A DNA stretch of 64,000 nt from Treponema sp. (lineage in GTDB: Bacteria; Spirochaetota; Spirochaetia; Treponematales; Breznakiellaceae): NCBI GenBank assembly GCA_031286205.1, contig JAITUR010000003.1:71697-135696 (forward strand). Direction: 5' to 3'. The position numbers and the translations under genes were made by a program. Under the pieces are notes generated by a model that was not told the origin of the DNA, did not search any database, and worked only from the letters and a program-made list of their open reading frames with translations. How positions within the stretch are numbered: position 1 is the stretch's first letter; every line of letters begins with the position of its first letter. Positions 16,035 to 47,346 of the stretch are shown in pieces.

Positions 16035-16037
16035 TTT

Positions 16038-19021: not shown

Positions 19022-19065
19022 CTTTAATCTCCGTTTTGCCGCTTAAGCGGCGATGTTAATTGAAA

Positions 19066-19082
19066 TTTCCGCAACGCGGAAA
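19066..19082 (-). terminator. Intra-operon hairpin (possible attenuator or partial terminator)
   Basis: Minus strand reads TTTCCGC-gtt-GCGGAAA followed by TTTCAATT. It lies in the 76-nt gap between the 670-aa gene and the FecR-like gene. A second hairpin, GCCGC-ttaa-GCGGC, is at 19038..19051. Confidence 0.3.
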
Positions 19083-19097
19083 CAAACCCCCTGTGTT

Positions 19098-21870: not shown

Positions 21871-22332
21871 CTACGAATATAAAGCTTGATTAAACTTTTC
21901 GTTCTTTTCGTAAAATTTTCCAATATGATATAAATGAGAAGGGTCGCTCTGCGCGCTTTTTTTTAATATCCGGATGGAAAAAGCTTCGTCCAGGCTCCGC
22001 AGCCGCTGAGAAAACAGCTTAATGGTATTAACAGCGACAGTTGGAGTTTTACGAATTAAATCCCCGTACTGTCTGCGTTCAACTACCATTAGGGCAACAT
22101 TAGTTTTTGCCTGTGCCGATTCAATATAGCTGTGTCCTGTCATTGCAGAAATAAGCCCAAACATTTCTCCTGCACCGACAATATTGCCTTCCTTTCCGGC
22201 TTCCGCCTCGCGGCTTATCTGAACCTTGCCTTCCTTGATGATGTAAAACCGATCTGCATTTGGTTTCCCTTCTACAATGATGTAGGAATCTTTGGAAAAT
22301 TTAAGAATGGAAGGTTGAAAGTTTGTAGACAT
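21871..22332 (-). CDS. Stand-alone cyclic nucleotide-binding domain protein
   Basis: I trimmed this to ATG 22332 (MSTNFQPSILKF...), which overlaps the upstream stop as TAATG. cNMP-binding motifs: IIVEGKPNADRFYIIKEGKVQI and GEMFGLISAMTGHSYIESAQA. Short TPR-like tail. Confidence 0.75.
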   Translation of the reverse strand: MSTNFQPSILKFSKDSYIIVEGKPNADRFYIIKEGKVQISREAEAGKEGNIVGAGEMFGLISAMTGHSYIESAQAKTNVALMVVERRQYGDLIRKTPTVAVNTIKLFSQRLRSLDEAFSIRILKKSAQSDPSHLYHIGKFYEKNEKFNQALYS

Positions 22333-25300: not shown

Positions 25301-26267
25301 TTCTTTTATCGCTTTGGTTAAAACGCCTGTCTATTTGAGGATTATTCCATTGCGTTCCTGAATTACGGAAAAAATTCCCGTCTTGTCTTCTTGCCTGAAT
25401 ATTATTAGCTTCGTATATCTTCTGTGCCAAGCTTGCATTTGTATTGTACATTATGCTCTGAACCCCTGCCATTTCAAAACCAAATAAATTTTTAATGCCG
25501 GGGCCTGCATCCACCCTGATACTGGACAACTGCAAATCTGTTGCAGGATATTGCCCGTCATTTTTTATGTTTAAATCCAGCCTATAATCGTTTTCGGTTA
25601 ACGACATAGTAAAATAATTTGAAATATCATCGCTTCCATCTTTGTAAACGACTATAGTATCTCCCAAAATCGCAGTTGCCGGATCTATTTTCATGTTAAA
25701 CCATAAAGAAACTCTTTGATCATAAGGATAAAAGTTTAGGGTTTGTGTAAGCGGCGGGTTGGAACGGGTAATGCGTAATCTTGTGTCACAAAATGGTACA
25801 ATTGTTACCGGCGATGTAATATCTACTGTTACCTTTGTAAAAACTGTCCCTGCCTGAATTTTTTCGATTACAAAAGCAGCTTCATTTTCTGACAGCGATA
25901 ACTCAAGTGCGTCTCCCAGCGGCATTTCCGCTATGTTGATATTTGAATAAACATCGCTTCTAAATGCAAGCCAGCCGGAAAAACCAAATCCGCCGGCAGG
26001 GGTAAACTCAACTTCAAAAGAATATCCTTTGCGTGTTTCGCCGCAGTTGCCTGTACCACGCTGCGGACTGGAACCCCAGCTTAGGGGATAATCAACAGTA
26101 ATTGTCAGCCTTTCTGCATTTGCCCATGCAATCTCGTCATGCAAAGAATCAAGAAAATCCGGATCGACTGCTCCGTTAAAAAGTTCACAAGCAGCAATTA
26201 ACAAAGAGCAAAGTAAAAAAGTAAAAAGCGGGCGAAAAAAAAACTGTCTTTCTTTATTGATTTTCAT
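22332..26267 (-). CDS. Very large surface lipoprotein with Ig/FN3-like N-terminal domains and a GLUG-motif repeat region
   Basis: 1311 aa. Signal peptide with lipobox (CSLLIAAC). About 10 GG[LIVF]xG repeats spaced 25-45 aa apart (GGLVAQ, GGIAGS, GGIIGT, GGVAGK, GGVCGI, GGFIGD, GGFAGL, GGFAGT, GGFVGV, GGFGGS), as in GLUG-motif proteins. Confidence 0.75.
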   Translation of the reverse strand: MKINKERQFFFRPLFTFLLCSLLIAACELFNGAVDPDFLDSLHDEIAWANAERLTITVDYPLSWGSSPQRGTGNCGETRKGYSFEVEFTPAGGFGFSGWLAFRSDVYSNINIAEMPLGDALELSLSENEAAFVIEKIQAGTVFTKVTVDITSPVTIVPFCDTRLRITRSNPPLTQTLNFYPYDQRVSLWFNMKIDPATAILGDTIVVYKDGSDDISNYFTMSLTENDYRLDLNIKNDGQYPATDLQLSSIRVDAGPGIKNLFGFEMAGVQSIMYNTNASLAQKIYEANNIQARRQDGNFFRNSGTQWNNPQIDRRFNQSDKRTAVINFSVEVPVEAPAAPDRVTIIERHYANLTGNEISPVDTPTTHNVSSTSITINHIMQTSESGIIRLVVLPWHSSGINAQDVDEAVAAGRYVTVVMDITAPIAAGSAANITTIAGYTSMGTGSDTGVYIFGRDPELSVSLNRLNNLNDVGISAASAWNQPWTRDDKENMQWKVLIPGAVYDSGWLDIYDDYGDPNSYLISLDTILNFDTIYTVRVQFTDRMGNVLDEELGKIKKIVSVTDPVTNLNVNCNAQGNTITVNWNTPSTMQGAYFYVNGVLRENVTGAGSITRTINTSQINNSNVSSGQAVSNVIRYDIEVVAHSAAGNAVPQEISIWNIPGMSVSLTNRVVEITSAAELADIASNSSGQYVLINDVSISDWTPISSFSGKFYGNGNTIIISGDFGGTTHRGLFGSVSNAVIRDLTVEYNTNITIPAANTRYIGGLVAQTQGSTGINNIIVKGTGTLSLSGSSLEIDAGIITGSTGAGVTIANCYAALGMTIGSSAHINLGGIAGSGGGIINNSVVSGTLAMTGTGSGDHVIGGIIGTMTGTGIYSCNSRAAINIPAAHTASGDTIVGGVAGKIINNINNGIPLMIVRGTVASGDITVESTGTGEIVIGGVCGISEGESAGAKVSFENCEYSGSLISFSRTRTGPGDFVTIGGFIGDVGNFTEFENSRSLSLIKVDTSTVINTSTNLEQLKIGGFAGLLKSGIKKCYSTTSIEVDIRSTDNITGTPNEQARHSFGGFAGTMDNNSTAEQCYATGSITVTSYEKESYRYFAGGFVGVIFADVDIEDCYATGNIMIDRLDGVTTGLIDAGGFGGSVRNSDGSSNTTTNSTIKRCFSVGSFTAKSGSTSNIGGGSVAGLISYLFIGSDIESCVVLGEFVSTQSNSPPTQNFIGRIAGNQPTSTAWKENYVADRLLLFNTDYNVTNPSPTTPSPVGTATNRNGETIKWEIIDRSFYRGLGFNEEIWDLGTPVTRNKWPTLRGMGGQ

Positions 26268-35945: not shown

Positions 35946-36800
35946 TTAAATTTTCAAGTGCATTTCGAATGATTTTGCAAGAGAAATAAATTGATCCAAT
36001 TCCAGGGTTTCCGCCCTTTCCATGCCTGTAAGCCCATTTTCAGATAAAATATTTTCTATACTCAATTTAGATAAAGAAGATGCTGAAAAAACAGAAAGGT
36101 TATTTTTAATTGTTTTACGACGGGATGCAAAAAGCGCGCGAACCAGCGGATACAGCATCTTTGGAATTGCATCAGGAAGCTTTGCTTCAGGATGCTTCGC
36201 ATCCAACAGTACCCCCATACTATCCACATTTGGCTGAGGATAAAACGAAGGCGGTTTAATCGTCATAAGCAGTTTAACATTATATATTGATGCGCATAAA
36301 ACCGAAAAAGAAGAATAGTCCGCGCTGCCGGCTTTTGCCGCCATGCGAAGCGCAACCTCTTTTTGAACAGTTACCACCATACGGGAAAAAACACGCCCTT
36401 TTTCTATTAAGTCCGCCAGCAAAGCAGCCGCAATGTTATAGGGAAGATTTCCCAATAAAAAACGCGCAGGGCTTTGAGTACTCCATGTCTTCATTGCATC
36501 GCCTTCTACAAGACTAAAATTATTTTGATCTTTGAACATTTCTTTTAACACACGAATAAACCCGGCATCGATCTCAAATGCTTTTACCTTGCTGCCATTA
36601 TCCAAAAGCAAAGCTGTCATAGCGCCAAGACCGGGACCTATCTCCCAAACTTCTTCTCCGGCGGCAGCTCCAAGCTCGTCTACAAGGGCCTGTCTTGTTG
36701 CAGGATTAATTAAAAAATTTTGTCCGAATTTTTTTTGCATTCCAAGATTATTTTGTTCCAGAAAAGCGCGCAAAGCAGATGCCGAATTATAATTTACCAT
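35946..36800 (-). CDS. rsmA: 16S rRNA (adenine1518/1519-N6)-dimethyltransferase
   Basis: 284 aa. KKFGQNFLINP and VWEIGPGLGAMT SAM-binding motifs. NLPYNIA. Confidence 0.9.
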   Translation of the reverse strand: MVNYNSASALRAFLEQNNLGMQKKFGQNFLINPATRQALVDELGAAAGEEVWEIGPGLGAMTALLLDNGSKVKAFEIDAGFIRVLKEMFKDQNNFSLVEGDAMKTWSTQSPARFLLGNLPYNIAAALLADLIEKGRVFSRMVVTVQKEVALRMAAKAGSADYSSFSVLCASIYNVKLLMTIKPPSFYPQPNVDSMGVLLDAKHPEAKLPDAIPKMLYPLVRALFASRRKTIKNNLSVFSASSLSKLSIENILSENGLTGMERAETLELDQFISLAKSFEMHLKI

Positions 36801-38290
36801 AAAAAAGGCTCCGGCTTTAATCGATCTTTGGTAAATTTATTTTCTAAAACAATAATTAAAACTATAGCTATAATGGATACCACAAGAATAACGACAGGTT
36901 TATCTGCAGAAATAGCGGGAACCTTGGCGGCTAAACCTACAAGCCATTCTTTAACCCGGTAAAGAGGAGACAAAAGCCATCCAAAATCCAATACAAGCCA
37001 AACAAGCGATAAAATCATGTACAAGGTTGTAAGAGGAACAAGCACAAGACCGACAAGAATTCCAATAGGCGCAATATACCCAAAAAGAAAACCCGTTATA
37101 CCCGCCGTCGCCAAAAATGCTCCGCAGGATGCAGACAATGGCTGTAACAAGAAATCAGGAATTTTTCCTGCAAGAAGCTCGTAAAAGGGCTGTCCAATAA
37201 CAAATATTCCGGCAAGAGCCGCATACGAAAGTATAAAACTTATTGTATGCCCTGCCGCCGGCGTAATAATAATTTGAATTAAAAACGATAAACTTAAAAT
37301 TGCCATTGGCTGTTTTGGAAGAAATCCCAAGATTGCAACAACTCCCAAAATATACATTAAAGCGGCACGGTTAAGGCTGGGCATTGGTCCTGTTAAAAAA
37401 CAGTACAGGCAAATTATTACTGCGCCCGCAATAGAAGCCGGTTTTAAGCCCAGCAGGGGTTTTAATAAAAAAGCGATTATTGCGGCTAACACTGCAAGGT
37501 GCATACCGGACAATGCAAGAATGTACGAGCAGCCTGCTTTTCTGTACATATCGGATAAATCAGAATCTAAATTGTCTTTTATACCCAATAAAAGCGCAAG
37601 AGCAAGAGCGCCCCACTCTTTGCTGTCCGCTTTTTCGATCAATTTTATACGAATACCTGTTCTCATTCGTTCTACCGGCGGCGCGGGTTTTACAACAAAT
37701 ATAGTGTTTGCGCTAAATGTCCACTCTCCTTCCGCAGTTGGAGAAGGGCGAAGCATTCCTTCGGAATAAACAGATGCTCCCCGCCCAAACTCCCTTAGTT
37801 TTTCCGCACTTTGCGCAGGAAAAAAAACAGTTATTCGTCCGGAAGAAGTTGCGCGCACAGAACTGTTGGGGCTTATGGATGCACACTTTCGTAAAGAAAC
37901 AAGCGCCATTACATTGCCGCCGGAAATTATCCTTGGATCTTCGAGCAATACACCTTCTATTGCCGTTATTTTTTCCGGCAAGACGGCGAATTTTTGCCGG
38001 CTAAGCCCTGCGTTGGCTGCGCTTATTCCAATGGCAAGCCCGCAAACAAATACAAAAACACAGATCGATACAAGTTTTAATCTGCGTCCCAGTTTAAATC
38101 TATAGTCTATTCTTGCGGCATAACGGCAAAAATACGAAAAGGAAAAAACCAGCATTAGCAGGATTATTGCAGTGGACATAAAAACCAACAGCGAAGCAAA
38201 CATTAGCGAGTGTAAAAAATAAAAACCTATTACTGCTCCTGCGGCAGTGCAAAAAACAGGTGTAGGACGCAAATAATTTTTCATTACCAT
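36794..38290 (-). CDS. comEC: ComEC/Rec2-family membrane protein (no metallo-beta-lactamase domain)
   Basis: 498 aa, polytopic. DUF4131-like OB region, then the competence-domain motif CSYILALSGMHLAVLAAI. Confidence 0.75.
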   Translation of the reverse strand: MVMKNYLRPTPVFCTAAGAVIGFYFLHSLMFASLLVFMSTAIILLMLVFSFSYFCRYAARIDYRFKLGRRLKLVSICVFVFVCGLAIGISAANAGLSRQKFAVLPEKITAIEGVLLEDPRIISGGNVMALVSLRKCASISPNSSVRATSSGRITVFFPAQSAEKLREFGRGASVYSEGMLRPSPTAEGEWTFSANTIFVVKPAPPVERMRTGIRIKLIEKADSKEWGALALALLLGIKDNLDSDLSDMYRKAGCSYILALSGMHLAVLAAIIAFLLKPLLGLKPASIAGAVIICLYCFLTGPMPSLNRAALMYILGVVAILGFLPKQPMAILSLSFLIQIIITPAAGHTISFILSYAALAGIFVIGQPFYELLAGKIPDFLLQPLSASCGAFLATAGITGFLFGYIAPIGILVGLVLVPLTTLYMILSLVWLVLDFGWLLSPLYRVKEWLVGLAAKVPAISADKPVVILVVSIIAIVLIIVLENKFTKDRLKPEPFLW

Positions 38291-39156
38291 TTTAAGCGCG
38301 AAATGGCTTCTGCGGCGGCGGAAGTAATATCTTCGTTATACGACAAATTACCTGCAAAAAGCAAATTATCAAAAGCCGCATTATCGCCGATATTTCCAAG
38401 AGCATTAATAACGGCCATTGTTATTTCAGAATCAAATGTTCCTGTTCTTTCTTTTCTTGCATTTATTAATCCAAGCTGCAAAACCAGAACAAGAGCCGCA
38501 TCAGAATCTCCTACAGCACCAAGACAGGCAATAGCCTCTATAAGGCGATCTTTAGAAACCCTGTTCTGCATAAAATCCGCCTGTACACGATAATAGTGCC
38601 TAATTACCTGCGCGTTTGCTCTTTTCCATTCAAGTTCTGTAAGAGCCAAGATTGATGCATAACGCAATGCGGTAAGATCCGCATCTTCTTCGTTATATAA
38701 AAAACTTTTTTCCAGAGCGTGTTCCGCAAGCTGCCCGCGTTCAGATACATTCAGCTTCTGGCTGTTAATTCCTGTTCTAAACGCAATGAATTTTTCTGCC
38801 GGAGGATTATTTTCTATTACATTTAATAAAAATAAATTCAGATTTCCGGAAATTATATCCAGAGCGCCAATGGCTTCGGAAGCTATTATTTCGGGATACC
38901 CCGAAGTTAATACAGAAAAAAGGGCGGGATACGAAGAACTGCTGCCCTGCTCCATTAAAGCGGCTATACATGCAGAAACAATTCCATAATCAACCGCTGT
39001 TCCGGCTTTAAATGCGTTATTCATTTCTCCTAAGATAAATTCAGGAGAAGGAAAATCTTGGCTGTAAACAGCAGGCGTGCTAGAAATAGCGCTGGAAATA
39101 GCGCCAGAAATAATCAATAAAACAAATAAGGCTGTAACTCTTATCCGTTTATACAT
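38284..39156 (-). CDS. Secreted HEAT/PBS-lyase-like repeat protein
   Basis: 290 aa with a signal peptide. Repeated helical units such as EAIGALDIISG, AIACLGAVGDSDAALVL and VINALGNIGDNAAFDNL. Confidence 0.55.
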   Translation of the reverse strand: MYKRIRVTALFVLLIISGAISSAISSTPAVYSQDFPSPEFILGEMNNAFKAGTAVDYGIVSACIAALMEQGSSSSYPALFSVLTSGYPEIIASEAIGALDIISGNLNLFLLNVIENNPPAEKFIAFRTGINSQKLNVSERGQLAEHALEKSFLYNEEDADLTALRYASILALTELEWKRANAQVIRHYYRVQADFMQNRVSKDRLIEAIACLGAVGDSDAALVLVLQLGLINARKERTGTFDSEITMAVINALGNIGDNAAFDNLLFAGNLSYNEDITSAAAEAISRLKW

Positions 39157-40267
39157 TTAACGCCCCCTGCGAGCCGTCTTTAATTGTATCGGCTTCTTCT
39201 TCCAATACACGGAACGGCAATTCTTCTTCATCTTCTTCCGGTAATAGATCAAACACTTCGCACAGAATATGGTTACGCGTTCCAATTGGAAGAGGGTCTG
39301 CTTCCATGTGAACTACAGATATATTTGCTTCTTTATTGTAATCGACAGAGCGGACGGTGCCGGGCATACAAACCGGAATCCTGTCCAAAGAAAATTGCAC
39401 TTTTAACCGCAAACCTTCTGTTGCCTGCCCGGAAATCCTGAATGCGCAGCCTGATTCAGAAATATCCTCCATCATACACAAAAGACCCTGCGCTCTTTCC
39501 AAAACATGAGGACTCTCGTTTTCTCTTACCATATACAAAAAAGCATTTTTCTTAAACTTTATACGCAGGTGTTTTCGTTTTTGAGTCCTAAACAGGGAAT
39601 CGTTATGCTCTACTTTTAACGAAGAAATACCTTTGGAAAAAACTTCATCCATTACTTCAGTATCAAAAACATAACCGGCATCATCTTCCCGCCAAAAATA
39701 TATAGATATTTTAAGACCTTCCCATGGCATAGATGCGCTTAATTTTTGATTCACCGGGCGCGAAATAGTAATATAGTTTCCGTAATTTTTTATTACTTCA
39801 GATTTATATACGCCTACATTTGGCACCAAAACCCGCAGAATCTGCCCTTCGTTTATTTGACGGGAAGTAGAAATACGAACTTTATTTTCTACAACTTCCA
39901 TCTCTATTTTTTTACAGTAATCGAAAAGCTTGGCAAGAAAATCCTGCGTTGGCAAGTCATTAATTTCGCCGGACATACGAACGGTATGAACCAATGTCCG
40001 AATAACTGTTTCCATTTTTTGCAGGGATTTAAAAATAGAAGCCGGATCCTGGATATTGCAGCCTGCCGAAATCTGCCTAAGCTGCTCCATTTCCCTAAGA
40101 GTAAATCCCGCTTCCTTCCCCTTTGCAAAGAATGCAAGCCAATTGGCGGAATTTTCCTTTTTAGAGCGGGTTATAAAAAAACCTGCGGCGAGAATTACTG
40201 CTGCAAAAAAGAAAAATGGTATCAATTTACTATCCTTGTTATATATATTATAATCAATGTTTAACAA
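39149..40267 (-). CDS. Membrane-anchored YcgR-like PilZ domain protein (predicted c-di-GMP receptor)
   Basis: 372 aa. N-terminal TM helix. PilZ signature QKRKHLRIKF ... EDISESGCAF (RxxxR / DxSxxG). Acidic tail. The start is uncertain: TTG 40267, or TTG 40225 preceded by AAGGA. Confidence 0.75.
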   Translation of the reverse strand: MLNIDYNIYNKDSKLIPFFFFAAVILAAGFFITRSKKENSANWLAFFAKGKEAGFTLREMEQLRQISAGCNIQDPASIFKSLQKMETVIRTLVHTVRMSGEINDLPTQDFLAKLFDYCKKIEMEVVENKVRISTSRQINEGQILRVLVPNVGVYKSEVIKNYGNYITISRPVNQKLSASMPWEGLKISIYFWREDDAGYVFDTEVMDEVFSKGISSLKVEHNDSLFRTQKRKHLRIKFKKNAFLYMVRENESPHVLERAQGLLCMMEDISESGCAFRISGQATEGLRLKVQFSLDRIPVCMPGTVRSVDYNKEANISVVHMEADPLPIGTRNHILCEVFDLLPEEDEEELPFRVLEEEADTIKDGSQGALNV

Positions 40268-40925
40268 TATGGGAATATATATAGAGGCTCTTATTTTATA
40301 TATTGTGCTCTTTTTTGCCGGTTCTGCCGGGGCAATTGCAAATATGCCTCAGGAAGCGAGCGATTTTTCTGTTTATCGGGAATTATACAGGATTGTATTG
40401 TACAGTATCCCCTCTATTGCCCTTATTTGGTATCTTGTTTTAAGGGGTAAAAAGCCAAAGAGCGCGCCCATTAAACCGTGTAAAAACGATCTTGTTTCGG
40501 GTCTTATCGCTCTAGGGTGTCTGTTATTAACCGGTTTTACCATCGCTCTTATGCCTTCCTATTTTGGGGGTTATCCCGCAAGCCCGCCTTCCGGTTCGCC
40601 TGTTGCAGTTTTAGAGTGGGTGGTTTTGTGTACATCCTGTTTTTTGGCGGCATACTTGGAAGAAAGTTATTTCCGTTTTTACCTGCTGTCTAAAAGCAAA
40701 GAAATGAAGATGGGGCAGATTCAGGCGCTGATTTTTTCTACAGCTTTGTTTTCTTTATGCCACATCTACGAAGGACCTTGGGGTTTTCTAAACTCCGTTA
40801 TTTCCGGAGCTATTCTTTCTTTTCTTTATTTGCGTTACCAGACACTTCATGGAATTGCCATTGCTCATGGCCTTTACAATATAGCTGTTTATGTTATTAA
40901 CACTCTGTTAATTATGCGCTTATAA
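40257..40925 (+). CDS. CPBP-family intramembrane glutamic endopeptidase (CAAX protease/Abi-like)
   Basis: 222 aa, polytopic. Motifs LEESYFRFYL (EExxxR), FSLCHIYEG (FxxxH) and IAHGLYN. The start could also be ATG 40269. Confidence 0.8.
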   Translation: MFNNMGIYIEALILYIVLFFAGSAGAIANMPQEASDFSVYRELYRIVLYSIPSIALIWYLVLRGKKPKSAPIKPCKNDLVSGLIALGCLLLTGFTIALMPSYFGGYPASPPSGSPVAVLEWVVLCTSCFLAAYLEESYFRFYLLSKSKEMKMGQIQALIFSTALFSLCHIYEGPWGFLNSVISGAILSFLYLRYQTLHGIAIAHGLYNIAVYVINTLLIMRL

Positions 40926-40942: not shown

Positions 40943-41926
40943 TTAAAACATATAGGAGAACCCGATATAGGGACGGAAAAAACCATTAAACCCTTGTGTC
41001 GAATAATTAAACCCGGTTTCCAGTAAAAATTTGTTAAATAAACGCCAGTAAATTGTCATACCCAAATTAAATTGAACACTTCTTCCGGTTGGCTGCAGGG
41101 GAAAAATCGCTCCTGCTTTTACTCCAAAAGCATTTCTTTCGCCCAGCAGCCATTTTAATACAAGCATATTTATACCCAAATCCGAATTATACCGAATATC
41201 TACTAATGGAGTAGTTAAAGGATCTAAGCTGTATCGACAGTAAACTACTTCTGTTCCAAAATAAATATTCCCGAAAGCCTTGGTAATAAAGCTGGCAAAT
41301 ATATCCATAGACAAAGGGTATAAACCCGAAAAACCTGTTCCGTATAACAGTATAAACGGTGTCCATGCCACACCAATTCTTATTGTAAGGGGCGGAATAT
41401 CTTCAAATACTTCCCAGTCTTTTTTTAGTTCGTCTCTTTCGCTGACGATTTTTTCTACAAATTCTTCTTCGGATCTTTTTTTTGCTATTCTATGTAAAAC
41501 AATTAAGGGTTCCATCAATTCTCTTTTAACCATATCTGAATCCACTGGTTCTGCTTCTACCATTATTTCTTCTGTTTTTTCTTCTATTCTTTCTTCAGCC
41601 TTTTCTTCTACAAGTTCTTCCTCCGAATGTAATGGAACAACTTGAAAATAAATCCAATCCGATTCTTTACTGGGACGATCCAGTACATCGTATGGAATTA
41701 CCAAAAATCTGTAAAAACCGGGATACAAAGAAACATTTAAAGATTGCACTGTTGTCGATTCCACCAAATAAGGGGCAAACTTGCCGGCTTCCATTCTTTG
41801 AAGAATAATCTCGTAACGGAAAGCGTTTTCTACATTCCAGGAAAGTCTTTGTTCAAGGCGTTGAGCGAAAACCGGGAAGGCAAGAAAAATTAAAATGATA
41901 ATTAAAAAGCGCTGTTTATTCATCAT
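40943..41926 (-). CDS. Outer-membrane beta-barrel-like protein with an N-terminal FN3-like domain and an acidic coiled linker
   Basis: 327 aa. Signal peptide FLIIILIFLAFPVFAQ. FN3-like module LSWNVENAFRYEIILQ...GFYRFLVIPY. Glu-rich linker. The C-terminal ~150 aa have an alternating pattern ending in GFSYMF, with the terminal aromatic typical of OM barrels. Confidence 0.55.
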   Translation of the reverse strand: MMNKQRFLIIILIFLAFPVFAQRLEQRLSWNVENAFRYEIILQRMEAGKFAPYLVESTTVQSLNVSLYPGFYRFLVIPYDVLDRPSKESDWIYFQVVPLHSEEELVEEKAEERIEEKTEEIMVEAEPVDSDMVKRELMEPLIVLHRIAKKRSEEEFVEKIVSERDELKKDWEVFEDIPPLTIRIGVAWTPFILLYGTGFSGLYPLSMDIFASFITKAFGNIYFGTEVVYCRYSLDPLTTPLVDIRYNSDLGINMLVLKWLLGERNAFGVKAGAIFPLQPTGRSVQFNLGMTIYWRLFNKFLLETGFNYSTQGFNGFFRPYIGFSYMF

Positions 41927-43574
41927 GCTGTATCCCCAGATCTTCTACCTGTAATTCAATTTCTCCGGGTACTTGGAAGTCAAGAATAAAAGTACTTTCT
42001 CCTATTGTTCCCCGCCGTGCAATCGTATTTCCGGAGCCTGTTCTTACAGCTTCTACCTGCCAGATGAATGTTCCTCTGTCTAACACCCTAAGATTTTCCA
42101 TGGAATAATTAGTTCTTGTTATTGGATCTGTCTGCACTATCTGCCGTCTGCCCGCAGGAGTTTGCTGGTATAAAGTAAAAATATAAGCTGTCGCCTGAGG
42201 TACGCTAGACCAGCTAAAATTGATTCTTCTAAGATTCTGTAATTCATTTGTCTCATATCTTGTTCCCCTTACAGGCAACATATTCTGAGGAGCTGCAAGA
42301 CGCGGGGGCGGTGCTGGGGGTGCTGGGGGCGGAGGAGGAGGAGGCGGTTCAGGCGGCGGTGGCGCGCTGGCAGGCACTGCCTCGGGGGTTGATGACGCCG
42401 CGGGAACAGTTGTCGATATTGTCGGCGGAGGAGGCGTTAACGCAAGCACTTCCGGCGGCGCTGCCGCTATCGCAACAGCAATTTCCTCTTTAGTAAAATG
42501 AGCCGAAACTATTTCCGGCGGTAATTCCGGCGGCAGATTAGCAGGGGTTGGGGCTTCCAATACCAGCCAGTCCATTATACTTTCAGATTCACTTTGCACA
42601 TTAGACCGGACTTCCGTTTCCGGAGCTGCTGTTGCTGCAACTGCAACAATTTTTTCTAACCGGAAAAAATTAACACTAGAATAAACACTTTGCGCGTTAA
42701 AAATAGAAGGATAAACAGGCAAGACACGCCAGAACCATACTCCTTCTTCCAAACCTGTTTCGGTTAAAAAAGAAGCGAATGTATTTTTATTTACCATTAG
42801 ATCGGAAAAATCCGGTGTCTTACATACTTCTATCTTGTAAGAAACAGCATCTTCCAATTCTTCCCACTGAAAATTAATTACAGGGGTTCCTTCCTGGTAC
42901 CTGAATATACTGTTTACTGCGGGACTTATCAATTTAGGTTGTCTAACAGAAATACTTGCTGTACTTACCTTGTCGGTACTGGCAGCCCATTCAACGCTTT
43001 GTACTGTTTGTATAGATACCTCTCTTGGCGTATCCCTTCTATCTTCTGCATTATTTGTATTTGCCGGGTTTGCCGTACTTACAACAGGGCTTATTGCTGC
43101 GGTTAATACACTACCCGGCTGGGCAGATACATTCCTGCCGTCAATTTCCAGTTCTATTTTTAGATTCTCGTCTGTTGCAACAACAGAGATAGTACCTTCA
43201 TCCAAAATAATTTGCAGTGTTTCGCCGTCGGCAGACAGCATTATTCGTATAAGCGTATTTTCTTCCAAAAAAATATCGGCTTCCTGTATTTTTAATGTAG
43301 CTGCGGAAACATCGGCTACACGGATTAAATCTCCAATGTAAACAGGCGATTCATTTGTAAGCCTATCCCATACAACCCGGTTAGAAAAACGCCGCTGAAC
43401 CGTATTTTTTCTTATTACAACAGTTCCAACAGGCTCTACATTTTGCAAATGCACTGTTTGCATAAGATCGTGCCAAAACAGATTTACACATACAACAGAA
43501 ATGGAAAGAAACAATAAAGTAATAAAAATATCGATAAAACCGAATTTTTTAAAACTGGAATTTCTGCCGCCCAT
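41916..43574 (-). CDS. Membrane-anchored FecR-domain-like protein with FN3-like modules and a long proline-rich spacer
   Basis: 552 aa. N-terminal TM helix. FecR-like segment GTVVIRKNTVQ...PVYIGDLIRVADVSAATLKIQEADIFLEENTLIRI. Two FN3-like modules (FQWEELEDAVSYKIEV..., FSWSSVPQATAYIFTLY...). Pro-rich region including PPPPEPPPPPPPPAPPAPPP. Confidence 0.65.
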   Translation of the reverse strand: MGGRNSSFKKFGFIDIFITLLFLSISVVCVNLFWHDLMQTVHLQNVEPVGTVVIRKNTVQRRFSNRVVWDRLTNESPVYIGDLIRVADVSAATLKIQEADIFLEENTLIRIMLSADGETLQIILDEGTISVVATDENLKIELEIDGRNVSAQPGSVLTAAISPVVSTANPANTNNAEDRRDTPREVSIQTVQSVEWAASTDKVSTASISVRQPKLISPAVNSIFRYQEGTPVINFQWEELEDAVSYKIEVCKTPDFSDLMVNKNTFASFLTETGLEEGVWFWRVLPVYPSIFNAQSVYSSVNFFRLEKIVAVAATAAPETEVRSNVQSESESIMDWLVLEAPTPANLPPELPPEIVSAHFTKEEIAVAIAAAPPEVLALTPPPPTISTTVPAASSTPEAVPASAPPPPEPPPPPPPPAPPAPPPRLAAPQNMLPVRGTRYETNELQNLRRINFSWSSVPQATAYIFTLYQQTPAGRRQIVQTDPITRTNYSMENLRVLDRGTFIWQVEAVRTGSGNTIARRGTIGESTFILDFQVPGEIELQVEDLGIQHDE

Positions 43575-43577
43575 ATC

Positions 43578-45689
43578 TTACTCGTCTAAGCTAATATCCA
43601 GTAAGTCTGCCGGATCGCCAAGTTCTTCTATTTCGTTTTTATCGTCCATGCCTATTTTATATTTTTTTTCATCGGTATTGATATCCGCATTATTAGTACC
43701 CGGAGGCTCGATATTCAAAAGCTGGCGAACTTCTCTTAAGGTCTGCGGTCCTTTGGTTTCTCCAAGGAAATTTACTACAGCAAAAATACGAACAGGTTTT
43801 TCTTTCCCTTTAACGGTAACAGGAGGCATTTCTTCCGTTATAAATTTATCGCCCACAAGTTTCCATGTATCTTCCGATATAAGAATATCCGCCCCCAGCG
43901 GTTTTGTAAGAGCTTCTATTCTGGACGCAAGGTTTACAGGATCGCCAATTACCGTATATTCCATTCTCATATCACTGCCCAGTTGTCCCGCCGTAACAAT
44001 ACCGGTATTTATACCGCACCCAATTTTAATAAGAGGGAATTCGGGATCATTTTCCTGGCGGGATTTGTTAAGATAAAAAAGACATTTACGCATCATTAAT
44101 GCGGACTTTACACAGTTAAACGCATCTTTGCGCGGACTTCCTGCAGAGTATGCTGTTCCCCAATGCGCCATAACAGCATCTCCAATAAATTTATCGACAA
44201 CGCCATTTGTTTTTTCTACACAATCGACCATTTGGGTAAAGTATGAATTTAACCACGAAACAATTTTATCGGATGCACCGCTGCCAAAAACCAAAGTAAA
44301 CTGTTCGGATTTTGCAGTAAAATCACGAATGTCGGAAAAGAAAACAGTGCCGTGTTTTGGAAAACCGCCGGGTTTAATTTCGCCGCGCATGGCTTTAATT
44401 GCAATTTCTTTATTTGTAAATCTGCCAAAAATATTCAGGGCTTTACTCATCTTATGGAAACTTCCCATTAAAATACCGACTTCGTCATGGCCTTTTGCTT
44501 TTAAATCAATATCAAAATTACCGCCTTCTATTTTACGCGCGGCATAAGCCAGTGTTCTTAGGGGAACAGACAGTGTTTTGGAGAAATACCAGATAAAAAT
44601 AATGGAAATGCAAAGCACTGCGATTGTAAAATAAATATTGCGCCTTGTTGTAGCGGCAATACCTTCGAATACTTTGTCGTACTCTATGCTTGTAACAATA
44701 ACAGTGCCTGCTATATTTAATTTTGTATAAGCTAAAAAATACCGCGCAGGTTTTTCAGATTCTTCTTTAGATGTTTCTATTTTTTTTAGCGCAGGAATAT
44801 ACACTGATGCTTTTTGCCAAATCTTATCCCAGATATTTTTAACTTTTACCCATATTTCTCCCGCTTTATCCCACGCAATGGCGGCAAAGCCGGATGCTAC
44901 AACTGCGGAACTGTCCTCCATAAAGCCAAGATCTGCTTCTATTAACTGCTGTCTGGAACGCTGAGTATTGTTAACAATATCAAAAAAAAAGCTTTCCCCT
45001 GCCAAATTAACGGCATTGTTTAATATGCTAAAATCTGAAATGGCAAGAATATCTCCATCGCTGTTTACCATAAAAGATTGATTCACGCCAAATCCAAAAT
45101 TATTGTTCAGGTTTTCGGAAGAAAATAAAACAGCGCCTACTCCGCCCTGAGACCACGGAAAATACAAAGCAAGGCATGGGCGGGCAAAAAAAGGTGACGC
45201 ATTATTAAGCAAAGTTTCTCCGCGGACAGCCCGCCCCAATGCAATTCTTTGTTCCTTAAAAAAATTGCCTGCGGCAGTATCCTCCAGGCCTCTGGACGAA
45301 AAAAATACGGTATTTACATACAACTGCTCGCTTTTGCCCGGTTCGACAAAATAAAGAGCCGCTATTTGCTGGTTTTCGGAGAAGAAATAGTCGACAGTTT
45401 CCTTTGCGATATTAGACCCCGGACCTACAGCGGTTATTGTATGCATTAAAACCCGCGAATTGGATCTAATATTCATAATGGCGGACTCCGCTTCCATAGC
45501 CGAGCGGCGGTTAACCTCCAGGTTGTTGTCTTCGGCGGTAATGCGCAAGTCTTGATGCACCAGCCAGGAAACAAGGGCAGTAACAGAGCCCAATGATACG
45601 ATAACAATGAAGGAAATAATGATAATTAACTTGGCGCCTATTGAAAATTTGATATTATCTATTGCGCGCCGCTTGTATTTTGCTGCCAT
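43578..45689 (-). CDS. Sensor class III adenylate/guanylate cyclase (periplasmic Cache-like domain, HAMP, cyclase)
   Basis: 703 aa. TM1, a ~300-aa periplasmic domain, then TM2. HAMP (LSVPLRTLAYAARKIEGGNFDIDLKAKGHDEVGILMGSFHKMSKAL). Cyclase core (GTVFFSDIRDFTAKSE, DKFIGDAVMAHWG, GINTGIVTAGQLGS, YTVIGDPVNLASRIE). Confidence 0.85.
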   Translation of the reverse strand: MAAKYKRRAIDNIKFSIGAKLIIIISFIVIVSLGSVTALVSWLVHQDLRITAEDNNLEVNRRSAMEAESAIMNIRSNSRVLMHTITAVGPGSNIAKETVDYFFSENQQIAALYFVEPGKSEQLYVNTVFFSSRGLEDTAAGNFFKEQRIALGRAVRGETLLNNASPFFARPCLALYFPWSQGGVGAVLFSSENLNNNFGFGVNQSFMVNSDGDILAISDFSILNNAVNLAGESFFFDIVNNTQRSRQQLIEADLGFMEDSSAVVASGFAAIAWDKAGEIWVKVKNIWDKIWQKASVYIPALKKIETSKEESEKPARYFLAYTKLNIAGTVIVTSIEYDKVFEGIAATTRRNIYFTIAVLCISIIFIWYFSKTLSVPLRTLAYAARKIEGGNFDIDLKAKGHDEVGILMGSFHKMSKALNIFGRFTNKEIAIKAMRGEIKPGGFPKHGTVFFSDIRDFTAKSEQFTLVFGSGASDKIVSWLNSYFTQMVDCVEKTNGVVDKFIGDAVMAHWGTAYSAGSPRKDAFNCVKSALMMRKCLFYLNKSRQENDPEFPLIKIGCGINTGIVTAGQLGSDMRMEYTVIGDPVNLASRIEALTKPLGADILISEDTWKLVGDKFITEEMPPVTVKGKEKPVRIFAVVNFLGETKGPQTLREVRQLLNIEPPGTNNADINTDEKKYKIGMDDKNEIEELGDPADLLDISLDE

Positions 45690-45695
45690 ATTACT

Positions 45696-45723
45696 ATTAT
45701 AGTGTATTTTTAGGCAAATGCAA
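45696..45723 (-). promoter_or_regulatory. Putative sigma70-type promoter placed for a leaderless cyclase mRNA
   Basis: Minus strand reads TTGCAT (45723-45718), a 16-nt spacer, then TATAAT (45701-45696), then agtaat and ATG at 45689. There is no Shine-Dalgarno sequence. Confidence 0.45.
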
Positions 45724-45912
45724 CTTGATTTTCCCGATAACCTCGACTAATATTGAACGAGATGTTAAACAAATCACAAAAGTTTCCGACGAGCTTTTAT
45801 TTGTTAATTTTATAATCAAACCCAAACGAAGCCGATATAAAAGATTATATTATTCCCATATCCTATATTTAAGGCACTATTCACACCTTGTAAAAAATGC
45901 TATGCTTTTATA

Positions 45913-46623
45913 ATGAAGAAAAAACACTTATCTATTCTAGTAATTACAGTTTTCCTTGCAGTTTTAACCCTTTGGGGCTGTAAAGGAAAAGAAACCGGCT
46001 CTTCCCATTCTTTCGATAAAGATGCTTCCTACGCCCTTGGTATGGCCTATGGTACGGAAATAAAAAACAATATCGATATGAGCGGAATTGTCCCGGACTA
46101 CGATCAGTTAGTCAAAGGCTTTAAAGACAGTTTAACCGGCAATAAAATGCGGTTTGACTTAAACGAGGCTATGGGAATACTTGAAGAGGCATTTATTGCA
46201 ATGACAGAAGCAAGAAACATCGAGCTTGAGCAGGAAGAAAACGCCTTTCTTGCCGAAAATGCAAAAAAACCGGGTATCATTATTACTTCTTCGGGGCTTC
46301 AGTATGAAGTGCTAAAAGAAGGAAGCGGCGCCAAACCGGGTTTTGAAGATACCGTACTTGTAAATTATACAGGCACTCTTGTTGACGGTACTGTTTTTGA
46401 CAACTCGCAAGAACCTACGGAAATACCGCTAAGCAGAGTTGTTTCCGGCTGGGCGGAAGGCTTGCAGCTAATGAGTATTGGCAGCAGTTATATATTATAT
46501 ATTCCGTCAGAAATTGGTTATGGTCCTGAAGGATTGGTTAATCCAATGACAGGTATGCAGATAATTCCGCAGTACGCAACTTTAATATTTGAAGTCGAAC
46601 TTGTCGGTATAAATAAAGAATAG
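45913..46623 (+). CDS. FKBP-type peptidyl-prolyl cis-trans isomerase lipoprotein (FkpA/Mip-like)
   Basis: 236 aa. Lipobox LTLWGC. N-terminal helical dimerisation-like region. FKBP core GLQYEVLKEGSGAKP...VNYTGTLVDGTVFDNS...GWAEGLQLM...IPSEIGYG. Confidence 0.9.
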   Translation: MKKKHLSILVITVFLAVLTLWGCKGKETGSSHSFDKDASYALGMAYGTEIKNNIDMSGIVPDYDQLVKGFKDSLTGNKMRFDLNEAMGILEEAFIAMTEARNIELEQEENAFLAENAKKPGIIITSSGLQYEVLKEGSGAKPGFEDTVLVNYTGTLVDGTVFDNSQEPTEIPLSRVVSGWAEGLQLMSIGSSYILYIPSEIGYGPEGLVNPMTGMQIIPQYATLIFEVELVGINKE

Positions 46624-46632
46624 GAGATAAAC

Positions 46633-47346
46633 ATGAGAAAGATTTTTATTTTTACCTGCCTTTTTTTGGCGGTATTTGCTTTGCACGCAAGAGCTATTCA
46701 GGAAGACATTAATCTTGCAGAGGAAAAAGCCCAAGCAAGCTATGCTATTGGAATGATGATGGGCTCCAATTTACAATCAATGGGCATTGAATTAGATTAC
46801 AATGCTTATCTGGAAGGTCTAAAAGCGATCATGGAAGGCGCTGAACCTCAAATAGGCATGAACGAAGCTATGGAACTTACAGAAGCCGCCATCGATAAAG
46901 CCGAAGACAGAGCTGCAGAACATCAAAGATTAATTCAAGAAGATTTCTTATCAAACAACAGCGCAAACCCGGGAGTAAATGTAACGCCAAGCGGATTACA
47001 GTTCGAAATTATTTTAGAAGGATCCGGAGAAAAACCCGCTCCAAATGATGTTGTAAAGGTTATATACACAGGAGCCTTAATTGACGGCACTGTTTTTGAC
47101 AAATCGGAAGATACAGGTTCTTATATTCCTCTGGAAATGGTAATTCCGGGATGGGGAGAAGGATTGCAGCTAATGAATGTCGGAAGCAAACATCGTATTT
47201 ATATACCCGCAAATCTTGCCTATGGAAAAAACGGTGTCCGTGGAATTATTCCTCAGTATGCAACATTGGTTTTTGATGTTGAGTTAGTCGAAATTATGGA
47301 TCGCAGTGTCTTCTTTGCTGAAGATGTAATGGAATTCGAATTCTAA
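46633..47346 (+). CDS. FKBP-type peptidyl-prolyl cis-trans isomerase, secreted (tandem paralog)
   Basis: 237 aa. Signal peptide. FKBP core GLQFEIILEGSGEKP...VIYTGALIDGTVFDKS...GWGEGLQLM...IPANLAYG. The 16-aa C-terminal tail is encoded antisense to the phoR 3' end. Confidence 0.9.
   Translation: MRKIFIFTCLFLAVFALHARAIQEDINLAEEKAQASYAIGMMMGSNLQSMGIELDYNAYLEGLKAIMEGAEPQIGMNEAMELTEAAIDKAEDRAAEHQRLIQEDFLSNNSANPGVNVTPSGLQFEIILEGSGEKPAPNDVVKVIYTGALIDGTVFDKSEDTGSYIPLEMVIPGWGEGLQLMNVGSKHRIYIPANLAYGKNGVRGIIPQYATLVFDVELVEIMDRSVFFAEDVMEFEF

Follow-up and report, generated by a model that had tools for sequence, protein, structure and literature searches.

Organization of the locus

The window analyzed here, a 64,000-nt stretch of DNA from a termite-gut-type Treponema (contig JAITUR010000003.1), contains three tightly packed minus-strand genes encoding proteins of 703, 552, and 327 aa, which we refer to as genes 1, 2, and 3 (Table 1). 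The ORF list confirms all three reading frames as first described from the letters alone, including the 3-nt gap between genes 1 and 2 (43575-43577) and the 11 nt shared by genes 2 and 3 (41916-41926, cATGATGAATAA). The region 5' of the cyclase gene also separates it from a divergent FkpA-like gene, and it carries the sequence TTGCAT-16 nt-TATAAT immediately upstream of the cyclase ATG. A consensus scan returned no better promoter site, and this is likely the operon promoter, as predicted from sequence; the scan also returned no terminator-like site within 17 nt 3' of gene 3. The neighboring genes encode CPBP, PilZ, HEAT, ComEC, FKBP, and histidine kinase proteins. Public annotation labels all three trio proteins "hypothetical."

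Table 1. Coordinates of the three genes, their predicted domains, and the upstream region within the window
Feature	Residues	Position	Strand	Basis
Intergenic region 5' of cyclase		45690..45912	-	Read from sequence
Gene 1, cyclase, 703 aa		43578..45689	-	ORF list
Gene 1 periplasmic sensor	~45-350	44640..45557	-	PERI matches in related loci
Gene 1 HAMP	369-418	44436..44585	-	Pfam PF00672, 39.8 bits, gathering threshold 25
Gene 1 class III catalytic domain	448-632	43794..44348	-	Pfam PF00211 Guanylate_cyc, 67.8 bits, threshold 21.9
Gene 2, FecR-like, 552 aa		41916..43574	-	ORF list
Gene 2 predicted TM anchor	13-43	43446..43538	-	AF2 helix; near-invariant columns in alignment A3
Gene 2 divergent FecR-type domain (marginal assignment)	50-162	43089..43427	-	PF04773 matches in homologues
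Gene 2 FN3-like module 1	215-308	42651..42932	-	AF2; Foldseek
Gene 2 proline-rich disordered spacer	376-430	42285..42449	-	Sequence PPPPEPPPPPPPPAPPAPPP; pLDDT <50
Gene 2 FN3-like module 2	438-531	41982..42263	-	AF2; hhalign to module 1
Gene 3, barrel protein, 327 aa		40943..41926	-	ORF list
Gene 3 N-terminal beta-sandwich	25-96	41639..41854	-	pLDDT >90; invariant columns
Gene 3 Glu-rich linker	100-175	41402..41629	-	pLDDT 43-64
Gene 3 8-stranded beta-barrel (predicted)	180-327	40946..41389	-	pLDDT >90; Foldseek

Gene 1 encodes a predicted membrane adenylate cyclase

By sequence, the gene 1 product is a class IIIb adenylate cyclase with two transmembrane (TM) helices, a HAMP domain, and a catalytic core that is intact and predicted to be active. 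The two helices (TM1, ~ residues 15-44; TM2, ~ residues 351-373) enclose a periplasmic domain ~305 aa long, and both the HAMP and the catalytic domain score above their Pfam thresholds. The best solved relative is Pseudomonas aeruginosa CyaB (3r5g, E = 2.7e-33), and a residue-by-residue alignment with CyaB, cyanobacterial CyaC, and other solved cyclases shows that all catalytic residues are present. The metal Asp residues fall in the FSDIRDF and GDAVMA motifs, the substrate residues are the Lys of DKFIGD (within DKFIGDAVMA) and the Thr of EYTVIG, and the transition-state Asn and Arg lie in VNLASRIE. The HAMP domain and intact class III core originally assigned to this protein are thus borne out.

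The identity of the periplasmic domain is less clear-cut. Homologues of it occur in the upstream cyclases of related loci, and six of 49 members of this domain family match dCache_1 (PF02743) weakly, with E values of 0.0032 or weaker. The family consensus reaches E = 1.5e-4 and 21.8 bits, short of the threshold of 45, over model positions 162-239 only, which is the C-terminal part of dCache_1, and a profile search of the PDB gives weak matches to dCache chemoreceptors (PctB, 6pxy). The 703-aa protein of the window itself does not match dCache_1, and Pfam finds no CHASE2 domain in it. These data suggest no more than a Cache-like module next to the membrane in a domain that is possibly double-Cache-like; the "Cache-like" label of the sequence-only reading survives in this weaker form, through sub-threshold matches in the family.

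Gene 2 encodes an anchored FecR-like protein with FN3 modules

The product of gene 2 is predicted to cross the inner membrane once and combines a FecR-like domain of divergent type with two FN3 modules and a linker rich in proline. A basic cytoplasmic stub of 12 aa precedes the TM helix, followed by the FecR-like domain, the first FN3 module, the linker, and the second FN3 module; the AF2 model (pLDDT 78) places a helix, a beta domain, and two FN3-like folds at the residues listed in Table 1. Because the cytoplasmic part consists of these 12 residues only, any output of the protein must be periplasmic or intramembrane. The 233 homologues are mostly metagenome proteins, those with names coming from Treponema/Spirochaetaceae metagenome-assembled genomes (MAGs). 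Conservation is greatest in the TM helix and the FecR-like domain, with D15, F22, F33, and D36 standing out as conserved flanking or intramembrane residues in alignment A3.

As in the FecR family, a single TM helix is predicted N-terminal to the FecR-like domain, and PF04773 is matched by seven of 48 homologues at the region equivalent to residues 50-162. Homologues above the threshold of 24 bits are P0036 (29.9 bits) and the proteins of loci L056 (27.2) and L071 (25.1), whereas the window protein has no PF04773 match even at E = 10, nor does the family consensus. The FecR assignment made in the sequence-only reading is therefore marginal, supported through homologues and not by a Pfam match in the 552-aa protein itself.

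The two FN3-like modules that had been proposed are supported. They are homologous to one another (hhalign probability 92%, E = 6e-7), and when the model was queried with its FecR-like and FN3 parts together, the top 50 Foldseek matches were almost all tandem FN3/Ig chains, with E values down to 6e-7. Module 1 additionally shows weak matches to the N-terminal region of DUF4962 and to SusE.

Gene 3 encodes a predicted outer-membrane barrel

The protein encoded by gene 3 comprises a signal peptide ending in ...FPVFA/QR, an Ig/FN3-like N-module, an acidic linker, and an 8-stranded barrel. In the AF2 model (pLDDT 83.6), the N-module is a six-strand beta-sandwich, the acidic linker is disordered, and eight long strands span residues 180-326. 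A profile search yielded 55 homologues, one of which is named "porin family protein" by NCBI. The N-module is the best-conserved part of the protein, with invariant W30, G70, R73, D80, L82, and W91; the linker differs in both length and sequence among homologues. It had been proposed that this module is of the same type as the FN3 modules of gene 2, for which we find modest support that extends to module 1 only (hhalign probability 43%, P = 2.5e-4) and not to module 2.

Foldseek matches the barrel to Ail, NspA, OmpX, OmpW, the TM domain of OmpA, and the N-terminal domain of OprF (E = 8e-5 to 7e-3, probability 1.0), with TM-scores normalized to the target of 0.44-0.69. The C terminus, IGFSYMF, has the alternating aromatic and hydrophobic residues of a beta-signal, and homologues end in GFGVQF, GLSYQF, or GVGWRF. 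The protein matches no barrel sequence family (OMP_b-brl, OmpW, Ail_Lom, and similar) in Pfam or NCBIfam at E = 0.1, and its family consensus likewise matches none. Gene 3 is confidently modeled as an 8-stranded OmpX/Ail/OmpA-like barrel, and the signal peptide, fold, Foldseek matches, and beta-signal all agree with its earlier placement in the outer membrane.

Both termini of 8-stranded barrels are periplasmic, so the N-module should face the periplasm. Since DSSP spacing indicates short extracellular loops, the barrel resembles an anchor, and we consider this role more likely than that of a surface receptor. On another reading, gene 3 would act like a small autotransporter that exposes its Ig-like module on the cell surface, for example to plant polymers or host glycans, with the cyclase answering an external ligand. 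Its passenger-like N-module, helix-containing linker, and C-terminal barrel do form a type V secretion-like layout, but the eight strands span only ~147 residues, and the TM-scores to 12-stranded translocators are ~0.16-0.26, well under those to 8-stranded barrels, even though the translocators NalP and EstA are among the Foldseek matches. Eight-stranded barrels have no pore that passes a polypeptide. A C-type lectin or FGE-sulfatase domain does occur in some family members; against surface display, the partner FN3 module of gene 2 is necessarily periplasmic, and the alternative anchors found at other loci (LysM and OmpA_C, described below) bind peptidoglycan, a periplasmic target. We judge surface display very unlikely.

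Conservation of the gene order

We compared 69 related loci from ~55 species-level genomes, counting an upstream cyclase where a homologue ends within 150 nt and a downstream gene 3 where a homologue starts within 200 nt. A cyclase lies directly 5' of gene 2 at 66 of the 69 loci, a gene 3 homologue lies directly 3' at 55, and both are present at 54. The 11-nt overlap of genes 2 and 3 is seen again in many related genomes, and several genomes carry two to three paralogous triads. As found here, the family is confined to Treponema/Spirochaetaceae genomes, many from termite guts. This arrangement is far beyond chance; at these loci FecR-like genes do adjoin class III cyclase genes, and the count upholds the proposal that the trio is functionally associated.

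A further possibility is that two envelope proteins are co-transcribed with a cyclase and have nothing else to do with it. Such a view would sit comfortably with the "hypothetical" status of all three proteins, yet order, spacing, and overlap are kept at the 54 loci, across species and among within-genome paralogues, and it is further opposed by the in-step divergence of domains in different proteins and by a gene 2-gene 3 fusion (both below). We regard co-transcription without a functional link as extremely improbable.

What truly argues for a functional link is this conservation, and not a second locus in the window. The sequence-only reading saw in the trio a repeat of the three-compartment logic of 14397..21110 and argued for function from two realizations within 25 kb. 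The 132-aa lipoprotein of that locus, however, has no Pfam match, PF04773 is found in 0 of 150 members of its family, and hhalign finds no significant relationship between it and the FecR-like domain of gene 2. The two flanking proteins of that locus, 545 and 670 aa long, are mutual paralogues, and a scan of the window with the gene 3 family profile (A2) matched neither. The cyclase there (16038..18623) carries a CHASE2 domain at 93.9 bits. With no FecR signal in the 132-aa protein and flanking proteins unrelated to gene 3, all that the two loci have in common is a class III membrane cyclase beside envelope proteins; the parallel holds to that extent, and the argument from a second realization is not supported.

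Alternative anchors, fusion, and co-divergence

At loci that lack gene 3, a domain that binds peptidoglycan often forms the C-terminal end of the gene 2 protein, namely LysM at L002a, L028, L033, and L042 and OmpA_C at L056 and L071. The distal end of gene 2 is thus replaceable by other outer-layer anchors. A C-terminal FN3 module in gene 2 goes together with a downstream gene 3 (counts 47/3/4/7; Fisher p = 7e-5, uncorrected for phylogeny), the exceptions being three loci with the FN3 module and no detectable gene 3 and four of the reverse kind. At one locus, L041, a single 1120-aa ORF comprises the TM helix, FecR domain, FN3 repeats, linker, and barrel, dropping exactly the signal peptide and N-module of gene 3. 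The two proteins are thereby joined, in Rosetta-stone fashion, where docking is proposed to occur, although this is a single case from a MAG. FN3 module 2 of gene 2 is a candidate docking module for gene 3.

The domains of different proteins also diverge in step. In mirror-tree comparisons uncorrected for phylogeny or barrel-alignment saturation, the periplasmic domain of the cyclase correlates with the FecR domain at r = 0.77, and the last FN3 module of gene 2 with the N-module of gene 3 at r = 0.73; within-protein pairs lie below these cross-protein values, at r = 0.40-0.51. With the catalytic domain controlled for, the cross-protein values are still 0.66 and 0.67.

A proposed trans-envelope system

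Pfam, AF2, and Foldseek support, as predictions, the compartments originally assigned to the trio: a cyclase in the inner membrane, a periplasmic FecR-like protein anchored there, and a barrel in the outer membrane. Overall, the original observation is confirmed and its interpretation is partly supported. We propose that the trio probably links cAMP production to conditions in the outer cell envelope. The cyclase would sit in the inner membrane, its ~300-aa, possibly Cache-like periplasmic domain coupled to the catalytic domain through HAMP. Gene 2 would be anchored beside it, with the FecR-type domain near the inner membrane and the FN3 modules and proline-rich spacer extending outward, while the gene 3 barrel in the outer membrane would suspend its Ig/FN3-like module in the periplasm on the long acidic linker. 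The distal FN3 of gene 2 would bind this N-module and so tie the FecR-like protein to the outer membrane, and the FecR-like domain may touch the cyclase in its periplasmic or membrane-proximal part. A change in the tether, which we infer could follow from perturbation of the outer membrane or cell wall, a shift in the spacing of the periplasm, or a ligand bound by the FN3 or linker parts, would alter HAMP output and thereby change cAMP synthesis, whether by activation or by inhibition. The cAMP would then be read by cNMP-binding proteins encoded elsewhere in the genome. We rate it somewhat better than an even call that the trio forms one operon and that, working in this way, it gives a receptor adenylate cyclase a trans-envelope accessory system.

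The same architectural evidence applies to a scaffold without a sensor, in which genes 2 and 3 position or immobilize the cyclase at envelope sites without passing on a regulatory signal, and the cyclase senses its own ligand through its Cache-like domain. The large periplasmic domain that the cyclase owns, with its sub-threshold dCache_1 similarity, and the short-looped, anchor-like barrel suit such a scaffold. It accounts less well for the in-step divergence of the FecR-like and cyclase periplasmic domains (r = 0.77), and the peak of gene 2 conservation in the TM helix and FecR-like domain is better fit by a specific regulatory contact. To our knowledge, FecR domains are signal-relay modules in every characterized system (Fec/Pup/Fox cell-surface signaling). 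We therefore think a pure scaffold unlikely.

Gene 2 might alternatively be subject to FecR-style regulated proteolysis, whereby an outer-membrane signal exposes the tether-protected protein to periplasmic or intramembrane proteases and its removal releases or inactivates the cyclase. The anti-sigma proteins FecR and PupR are processed by proteolysis, and the N-terminal periplasmic domain of gene 2 is homologous to PF04773 in family members. TonB-dependent transducers are reported to shield the anti-sigma factor from proteolysis when no signal is present (PMC11637429). A gene for a CPBP/Rce1-like intramembrane protease (40257..40925 in the window) is a conserved convergent neighbor, seen also at L002-L004, but it lies on the other strand and is missing at L001 and L077. 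The operon itself has no protease gene, and gene 2 offers no cytoplasmic domain that cleavage could set free. This route appears quite unlikely, and we continue to favor the signal-coupling tether.

Comparison with known systems

Residues 180-327 of gene 3 resemble the OmpA/OmpX/OmpW/Ail barrels in predicted fold and size, and the protein shares their signal peptide and C-terminal aromatic beta-signal. It differs from them in having no Pfam or NCBIfam sequence-family match, and its domain order is the reverse of that in OmpA, with the periplasmic module N-terminal and the barrel C-terminal.

The trio recalls FecA-FecR-FecI signaling (also Pup, Fox, and Has) in pairing a single-pass inner-membrane protein that has a periplasmic domain of FecR type (PF04773, marginally assigned in gene 2) with an outer-membrane beta-barrel whose N-terminal periplasmic domain offers a contact point, the logic being signal relay across the periplasm. 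Unlike those systems, gene 2 lacks a cytoplasmic anti-sigma domain (~80-90 aa), with 12 residues preceding its TM helix, and no ECF sigma factor gene occurs among the triad neighbors or in the gene tables of related loci. Where those systems have a TonB-dependent transducer of 22 strands that carries an STN domain, the 327-aa partner has an Ig-like module and an anchor-type barrel of eight strands and shows no Pfam match, plug, or STN. Output is presumed to run through a class III adenylate cyclase, and the FN3 repeats and proline-rich spacer are extra.

In the Burkholderia "BiofilmReg" operon, the gene for a LysM-FecR periplasmic protein adjoins that for a CHASE2 histidine kinase (PMC5192318). 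This combination of FecR and peptidoglycan-binding LysM beside a membrane sensor is like that of the gene 2 variants ending in LysM, whereas the window copy has the FN3/outer-membrane-barrel pair in place of LysM. BiofilmReg signals through a histidine kinase and response regulator with a CHASE2 sensor; the presumed output of the trio is a cyclase.

Two published arrangements involve cyclases. In Campylobacterota, CHASE2 cyclases cluster with FecR-domain outer-membrane proteins, a TPR protein, and a phosphodiesterase (PMC9239204), and in Sinorhizobium meliloti the outer-membrane barrel NsrA relays a signal to the CHASE2 cyclases CyaD1, CyaD2, and CyaK (PMC13001267). The trio differs from the CHASE2 clusters in its sensor, a ~300-aa, possibly dCache-like domain with HAMP, in carrying its FecR-like domain not on the outer-membrane protein but on a distinct FN3 protein anchored in the inner membrane, and in having no TPR or cAMP phosphodiesterase gene in the triad or its conserved neighbors. 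What it has in common with them is a class III cyclase in the membrane that is linked, by its genes or in function, to a protein with a FecR domain and/or an outer-membrane barrel, with cAMP as the output, presumed in the case of the trio, of a signal at the level of the envelope. Because clusters of CHASE2 cyclases, FecR domains, and outer-membrane proteins have already been published, the trio represents no new principle.

Results

The three minus-strand genes of the triad are separated by a 3-nt gap (gene 1/gene 2) and joined by an 11-nt overlap (gene 2/gene 3), the start codon of gene 3 lying inside cATGATGAATAA at the end of gene 2, and their positions and spacing are exactly as claimed in the sequence-only reading. 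The window has a G+C content of 41.5%, and the closest relatives of all three proteins occur in Treponema/Spirochaetaceae metagenome-assembled genomes, many of whose labels (Emb289P3, Co191P1 and similar) belong to a termite-gut metagenome series (PMC7886697). An Rfam scan of the whole window returned no RNA element, and promoter and terminator scans gave scores no better than those of shuffled sequence. Downstream of the triad lies a conserved syntenic block that encodes a convergent CPBP/Rce1-like intramembrane protease, a PilZ-domain protein, a HEAT-repeat protein and ComEC; this order is kept in the related loci L002-L004 and, without the CPBP gene, in L077. On the other side, two tandem FkpA-like genes (FKBP_N and FKBP_C, each with a signal peptide) diverge from the cyclase, and their products, predicted periplasmic prolyl isomerases, adjoin an operon that encodes a proline-rich periplasmic protein.

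Features of the triad, the CHASE2 locus and related loci (window coordinates unless a gene or an L-numbered locus of another genome is named)
Feature	Position	Strand	Basis or remark
Gene 1, cyclase (703 aa)	43578..45689	minus	ORF
HAMP	gene 1 residues 369-418	minus	Pfam
Guanylate_cyc	gene 1 residues 448-632	minus	Pfam
Gene 2, FecR-like/FN3 protein (552 aa)	41916..43574	minus	ORF
Gene 3, barrel protein (327 aa)	40943..41926	minus	ORF
CPBP, PilZ, HEAT, ComEC block	36794..40925
Tandem FkpA-like genes	45913..47346
545-aa flanking protein	14397..16034
132-aa predicted lipoprotein	18623..19021		between TPR protein and CHASE2 cyclase; stop codon overlaps cyclase start
670-aa flanking protein	19098..21110
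cNMP-binding proteins	21121..21861; 21871..22365
1311-aa secreted protein	22332..26267
LysM- or OmpA-family-ended two-gene variants	L002 428..3911; L028, L033, L042; L056, L071		homologous cyclase then FecR-like protein
Fused 1120-aa ORF	L041 2116..5478
Tandem cyclase genes	L044 1837..6023		ahead of FecR-like gene
750-aa cyclase with FN3-like insert	L056 3765..6017
Gene 3 homologue P0141	L077 6415..7893		lectin insertion

The same arrangement recurs across related genomes. In each of three gene 2 homologue loci that we examined, a cyclase is followed by a FecR-like gene and then by a gene for a protein of 276-344 aa; the 11-nt overlap recurs in two of these three loci, and CPBP, PilZ, HEAT and ComEC lie downstream there, syntenic with the window. 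A scan of one genome per GTDB species yielded 72 loci in about 55 genomes, 14 of which hold two or three copies. ORFs called in these loci were searched with profiles of the window's gene families, and we counted the 69 loci with an N-terminal FecR-like ORF. A class III cyclase ends within 150 nt upstream on the same strand in 66 of the 69, a gene 3 homologue starts within 200 nt downstream in 55, and both partners are present in 54, with contig ends cutting two of the three cyclase-less loci and several of those without gene 3. Nearly every complete upstream cyclase copy has a periplasmic domain homologous to that of the window, and all members of the families are annotated as hypothetical.

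A rival account of this linkage is meaningless co-transcription. In a comparison of 48 triads, the periplasmic domain of the cyclase and the FecR-like domain diverge in parallel (pairwise divergence, r 0.77), as do the last FN3 of gene 2 and the N-module, the N-terminal β-sandwich of gene 3 (r 0.73). All domain pairs within one protein fall below these two cross-protein pairs (r 0.40-0.51), and the cross-protein correlations are 0.66-0.67 after control for the catalytic domain. At the level of sequence, this divergence in step of paired domains across the triad proteins is suggestive.

The closest solved structure to gene 1 is the catalytic domain of Pseudomonas aeruginosa CyaB (3r5g, E 2.7e-33). 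Because both metal-binding Asp residues, the substrate Lys, the class IIIb Thr (EYTVIG) and the Asn/Arg pair (VNLASRIE) are all present in this alignment, the class III core is indeed intact, as had been proposed, and the product is most likely an adenylate cyclase. Hydrophobic segments at residues ~15-44 and 351-373 flank a domain of ~305 aa that should be periplasmic. The description of this sensor as Cache-like finds weak support: dCache_1 does not match the window's own protein, but it matches 6 of 49 homologous periplasmic domains at E 0.003 or weaker, and the family consensus scores 21.8 bits against the last third of the dCache_1 model, for which the gathering threshold is 45. When the periplasmic-domain profile was compared with PDB sequences, the dCache chemoreceptors PctB and 6pxy appeared at E 1.5-2.4 only. 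Two cyclase variants occur elsewhere: L044 has two tandem cyclase genes, and the L056 cyclase contains an FN3-like insert recognized by the gene 2 profile.

Direct annotation of genes 2 and 3 with Pfam and NCBIfam gave nothing usable, and the case for both was built from homologues. The AF2 model of gene 2, computed from a 48-sequence alignment (mean pLDDT 78), comprises a helix (13-43), an all-β domain (50-162), a β-sandwich (215-308), three short helices, a disordered proline-rich stretch and a second β-sandwich (438-531). Tandem FN3 chains such as fibronectin and contactins were its Foldseek matches, with E down to 6e-7, and hhalign shows homology between the two modules (probability 92%), so the two FN3-like modules read from the sequence are confirmed. 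The FecR-like label holds by transitive homology only. PF04773 matches neither the window's gene 2 nor the family consensus, but 7 of the 48 homologues match it, always in the equivalent region, and three family members lie above the Pfam threshold (P0036, 29.9 bits; the L056 protein, 27.2; the L071 protein, 25.1). Searching PDB sequences with the family profile recovered no FecR or PupR structure and only the N-terminal Ig region of heparinase II/III (E 0.12); in Foldseek, the whole model was swamped by FN3 chains, from which a FecR fold is not separable there. A rival reading of gene 2 is regulated proteolysis in the style of FecR. Only 12 residues precede the TM helix, and gene 2 therefore has no anti-sigma domain; no ECF sigma gene lies near it. 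Variation in the number of FN3 repeats accounts for the spread of homologue lengths, from 373 to 1379 aa.

Pfam and NCBIfam were silent on gene 3, and a word-indexed search with gene 3 alone found only four proteins, so that a profile including the downstream genes of related loci was needed. Its AF2 model (mean pLDDT 83.6) confidently shows a signal-peptide helix, a β-sandwich (25-96) and eight long antiparallel strands (180-326), with a Glu-rich, low-confidence linker between sandwich and strands. The best Foldseek matches are the 8-stranded barrels Ail, NspA, OmpX, OmpW, OmpA-TM and OprF-N (probability 1.0; TM-score normalized to target 0.44-0.69). The C-terminal IGFSYMF is a typical β-signal, and NCBI names one homologue "porin family protein"; the proposed outer-membrane location is thus borne out by prediction. 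Surface display of the N-module is a rival reading. As an 8-stranded barrel has its two termini on the periplasmic side, the conserved N-module should, on the model, hang into the periplasm, an OmpA-like design with the domain order reversed. The shared FN3 type proposed for genes 2 and 3 holds modestly and for one module: the N-module resembles module 1 of gene 2 (hhalign probability 43%, P 2.5e-4) but shows no similarity to module 2.

Variant homologues of gene 3 are P0141, P0127, P0157 and P0173. Some, among them P0141 of L077, a locus syntenic with the window, have a C-type lectin domain inserted between N-module and barrel; in P0173, the N-module is followed by an FGE-sulfatase domain and no barrel. 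In these homologues, the N-module therefore behaves as a portable unit.

Exceptions to the triad show that the anchors are exchangeable. In loci lacking gene 3, the FecR-like protein often has, in place of the C-terminal FN3, a terminal peptidoglycan-binding domain, namely LysM in four loci and an OmpA-family domain in two. Co-occurrence of the C-terminal FN3 of gene 2 with a downstream gene 3 is significant by a phylogeny-uncorrected Fisher test (47/3/4/7, p 7e-5). In L041, from a metagenome-assembled genome, a single ORF runs through TM, FecR, FN3 repeats, linker and barrel, ends in GVGWRF and lacks both the gene 3 signal peptide and the N-module, as expected if the N-module is normally joined non-covalently to the last FN3 of gene 2. 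A rival to any signaling role is that these proteins form a purely positional scaffold.

The topology of the predicted L041 polypeptide is unusual in that one end is anchored in the inner membrane and the other forms an outer-membrane barrel. The LysM variants L002 and L033 are followed by a small secreted ORF (187-198 aa) that ends in GIRF or GVRF and has a barrel-like look; comparison of these ORFs with gene 3 barrels by hhalign was not significant, and we rejected them as such.

The CHASE2 locus (14397..21110) had been taken as the first of two independent realisations of one association, a claim that is only partly supported. Pfam places a CHASE2 cyclase there, and the candidate for a FecR-like partner was the 132-aa lipoprotein. 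An HMMER scan of 1.84 billion representatives defined its family as ~130-aa proteins with 154 cluster representatives; none of 150 members scanned with Pfam contains FecR, and hhalign against the FecR-like domain of gene 2 was not significant, so that these searches detected no FecR relationship. The only thread is DUF7354, found in 7 of the 150 and in a region overlapping the FecR match of one gene 2 variant. The two flanking proteins are paralogues (27% identity over 400 aa, E 6e-33) that, by sequence, appear unrelated to gene 3; both have weak N-terminal barrel-like signals and a shared region matching the N terminus of an anti-phage ProA model and, weakly, a transglutaminase core, to which the 670-aa protein adds C-terminal TPR repeats. 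The locus looks like the published CHASE2/TPR type and is a thematic parallel, not an independent replicate, of the triad. Adjoining it are two cNMP-binding proteins, candidate readers of cAMP from either window cyclase, and beside their genes is one for a secreted protein whose long, repetitive C-terminal half is rich in Gly, Ser and Thr.

Discussion

To our knowledge, FecR domains are known almost exclusively as anti-sigma relays in iron uptake, and the route by which envelope signals reach receptor-type class III cyclases is little understood. The triad is a compact, three-gene case of a FecR-type domain that lacks any sigma-factor function, is wired to a cyclase and has swappable outer-layer anchors. 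The observation behind it is confirmed and its interpretation partly supported; the module is coherent and testable.

Our best reading, which builds on the architectures, gene linkage and exchangeable anchors shown here, is that the cyclase works with a FecR-type co-receptor, itself strapped to an outer layer of the envelope. The strap would reach the outer membrane through the FN3/barrel partner in the window and most relatives, and peptidoglycan in sister variants. Its state would pass through the FecR-like domain to the periplasmic or TM region of the cyclase and HAMP, altering cAMP synthesis; we infer the contacts, the signal and whether regulation is positive or negative. This reading gives a plausible role to three "hypothetical" protein families multiplied in termite-gut treponemes, and real contacts would make the module a tractable model of how cAMP is controlled across the envelope.

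A bolder reading, which we consider unlikely, is that the triad acts as a mechanical "ruler" of envelope integrity, the strapped FecR-like protein turning changes in spacing or attachment into cAMP without sigma factor or small-molecule ligand. Exchangeable anchors (FN3/barrel pair, fused barrel, LysM or OmpA_C) would hold the inner-membrane FecR-like protein to the outer membrane, or to peptidoglycan in sister variants, and paralogues with different FN3 repeat numbers (373-1379 aa) would be tuned to different distances or layers of the spirochaete periplasm, which is unusually wide and contains flagella. Such a mechanical sensor would make the tether considerably more interesting.

We found no published account in which a HAMP-containing, non-CHASE2 cyclase is combined with a FecR-FN3 protein of the inner membrane and an FN3-barrel partner, and a literature search for a T. 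pallidum equivalent (TP0483-TP0485) also came back empty. FecR-domain proteins beside CHASE2 sensors are already in the literature (PMC9239204, PMC5192318). In Campylobacterota, all identified adenylate cyclases carry CHASE2 domains, and most cluster with a FecR-domain outer-membrane protein, a TPR protein and a phosphodiesterase (PMC9239204). In Burkholderia, a CHASE2 kinase is adjoined by a gene for a LysM-FecR protein (PMC5192318). The Sinorhizobium meliloti CHASE2 cyclases CyaD1/D2/K are reported to respond to a plant signal through the outer-membrane barrel NsrA (PMC13001267). If the contacts proposed for the triad are real, the Campylobacterota clusters, the NsrA system and the Burkholderia FecR/CHASE2 operon would fall with it into one mechanistic class.
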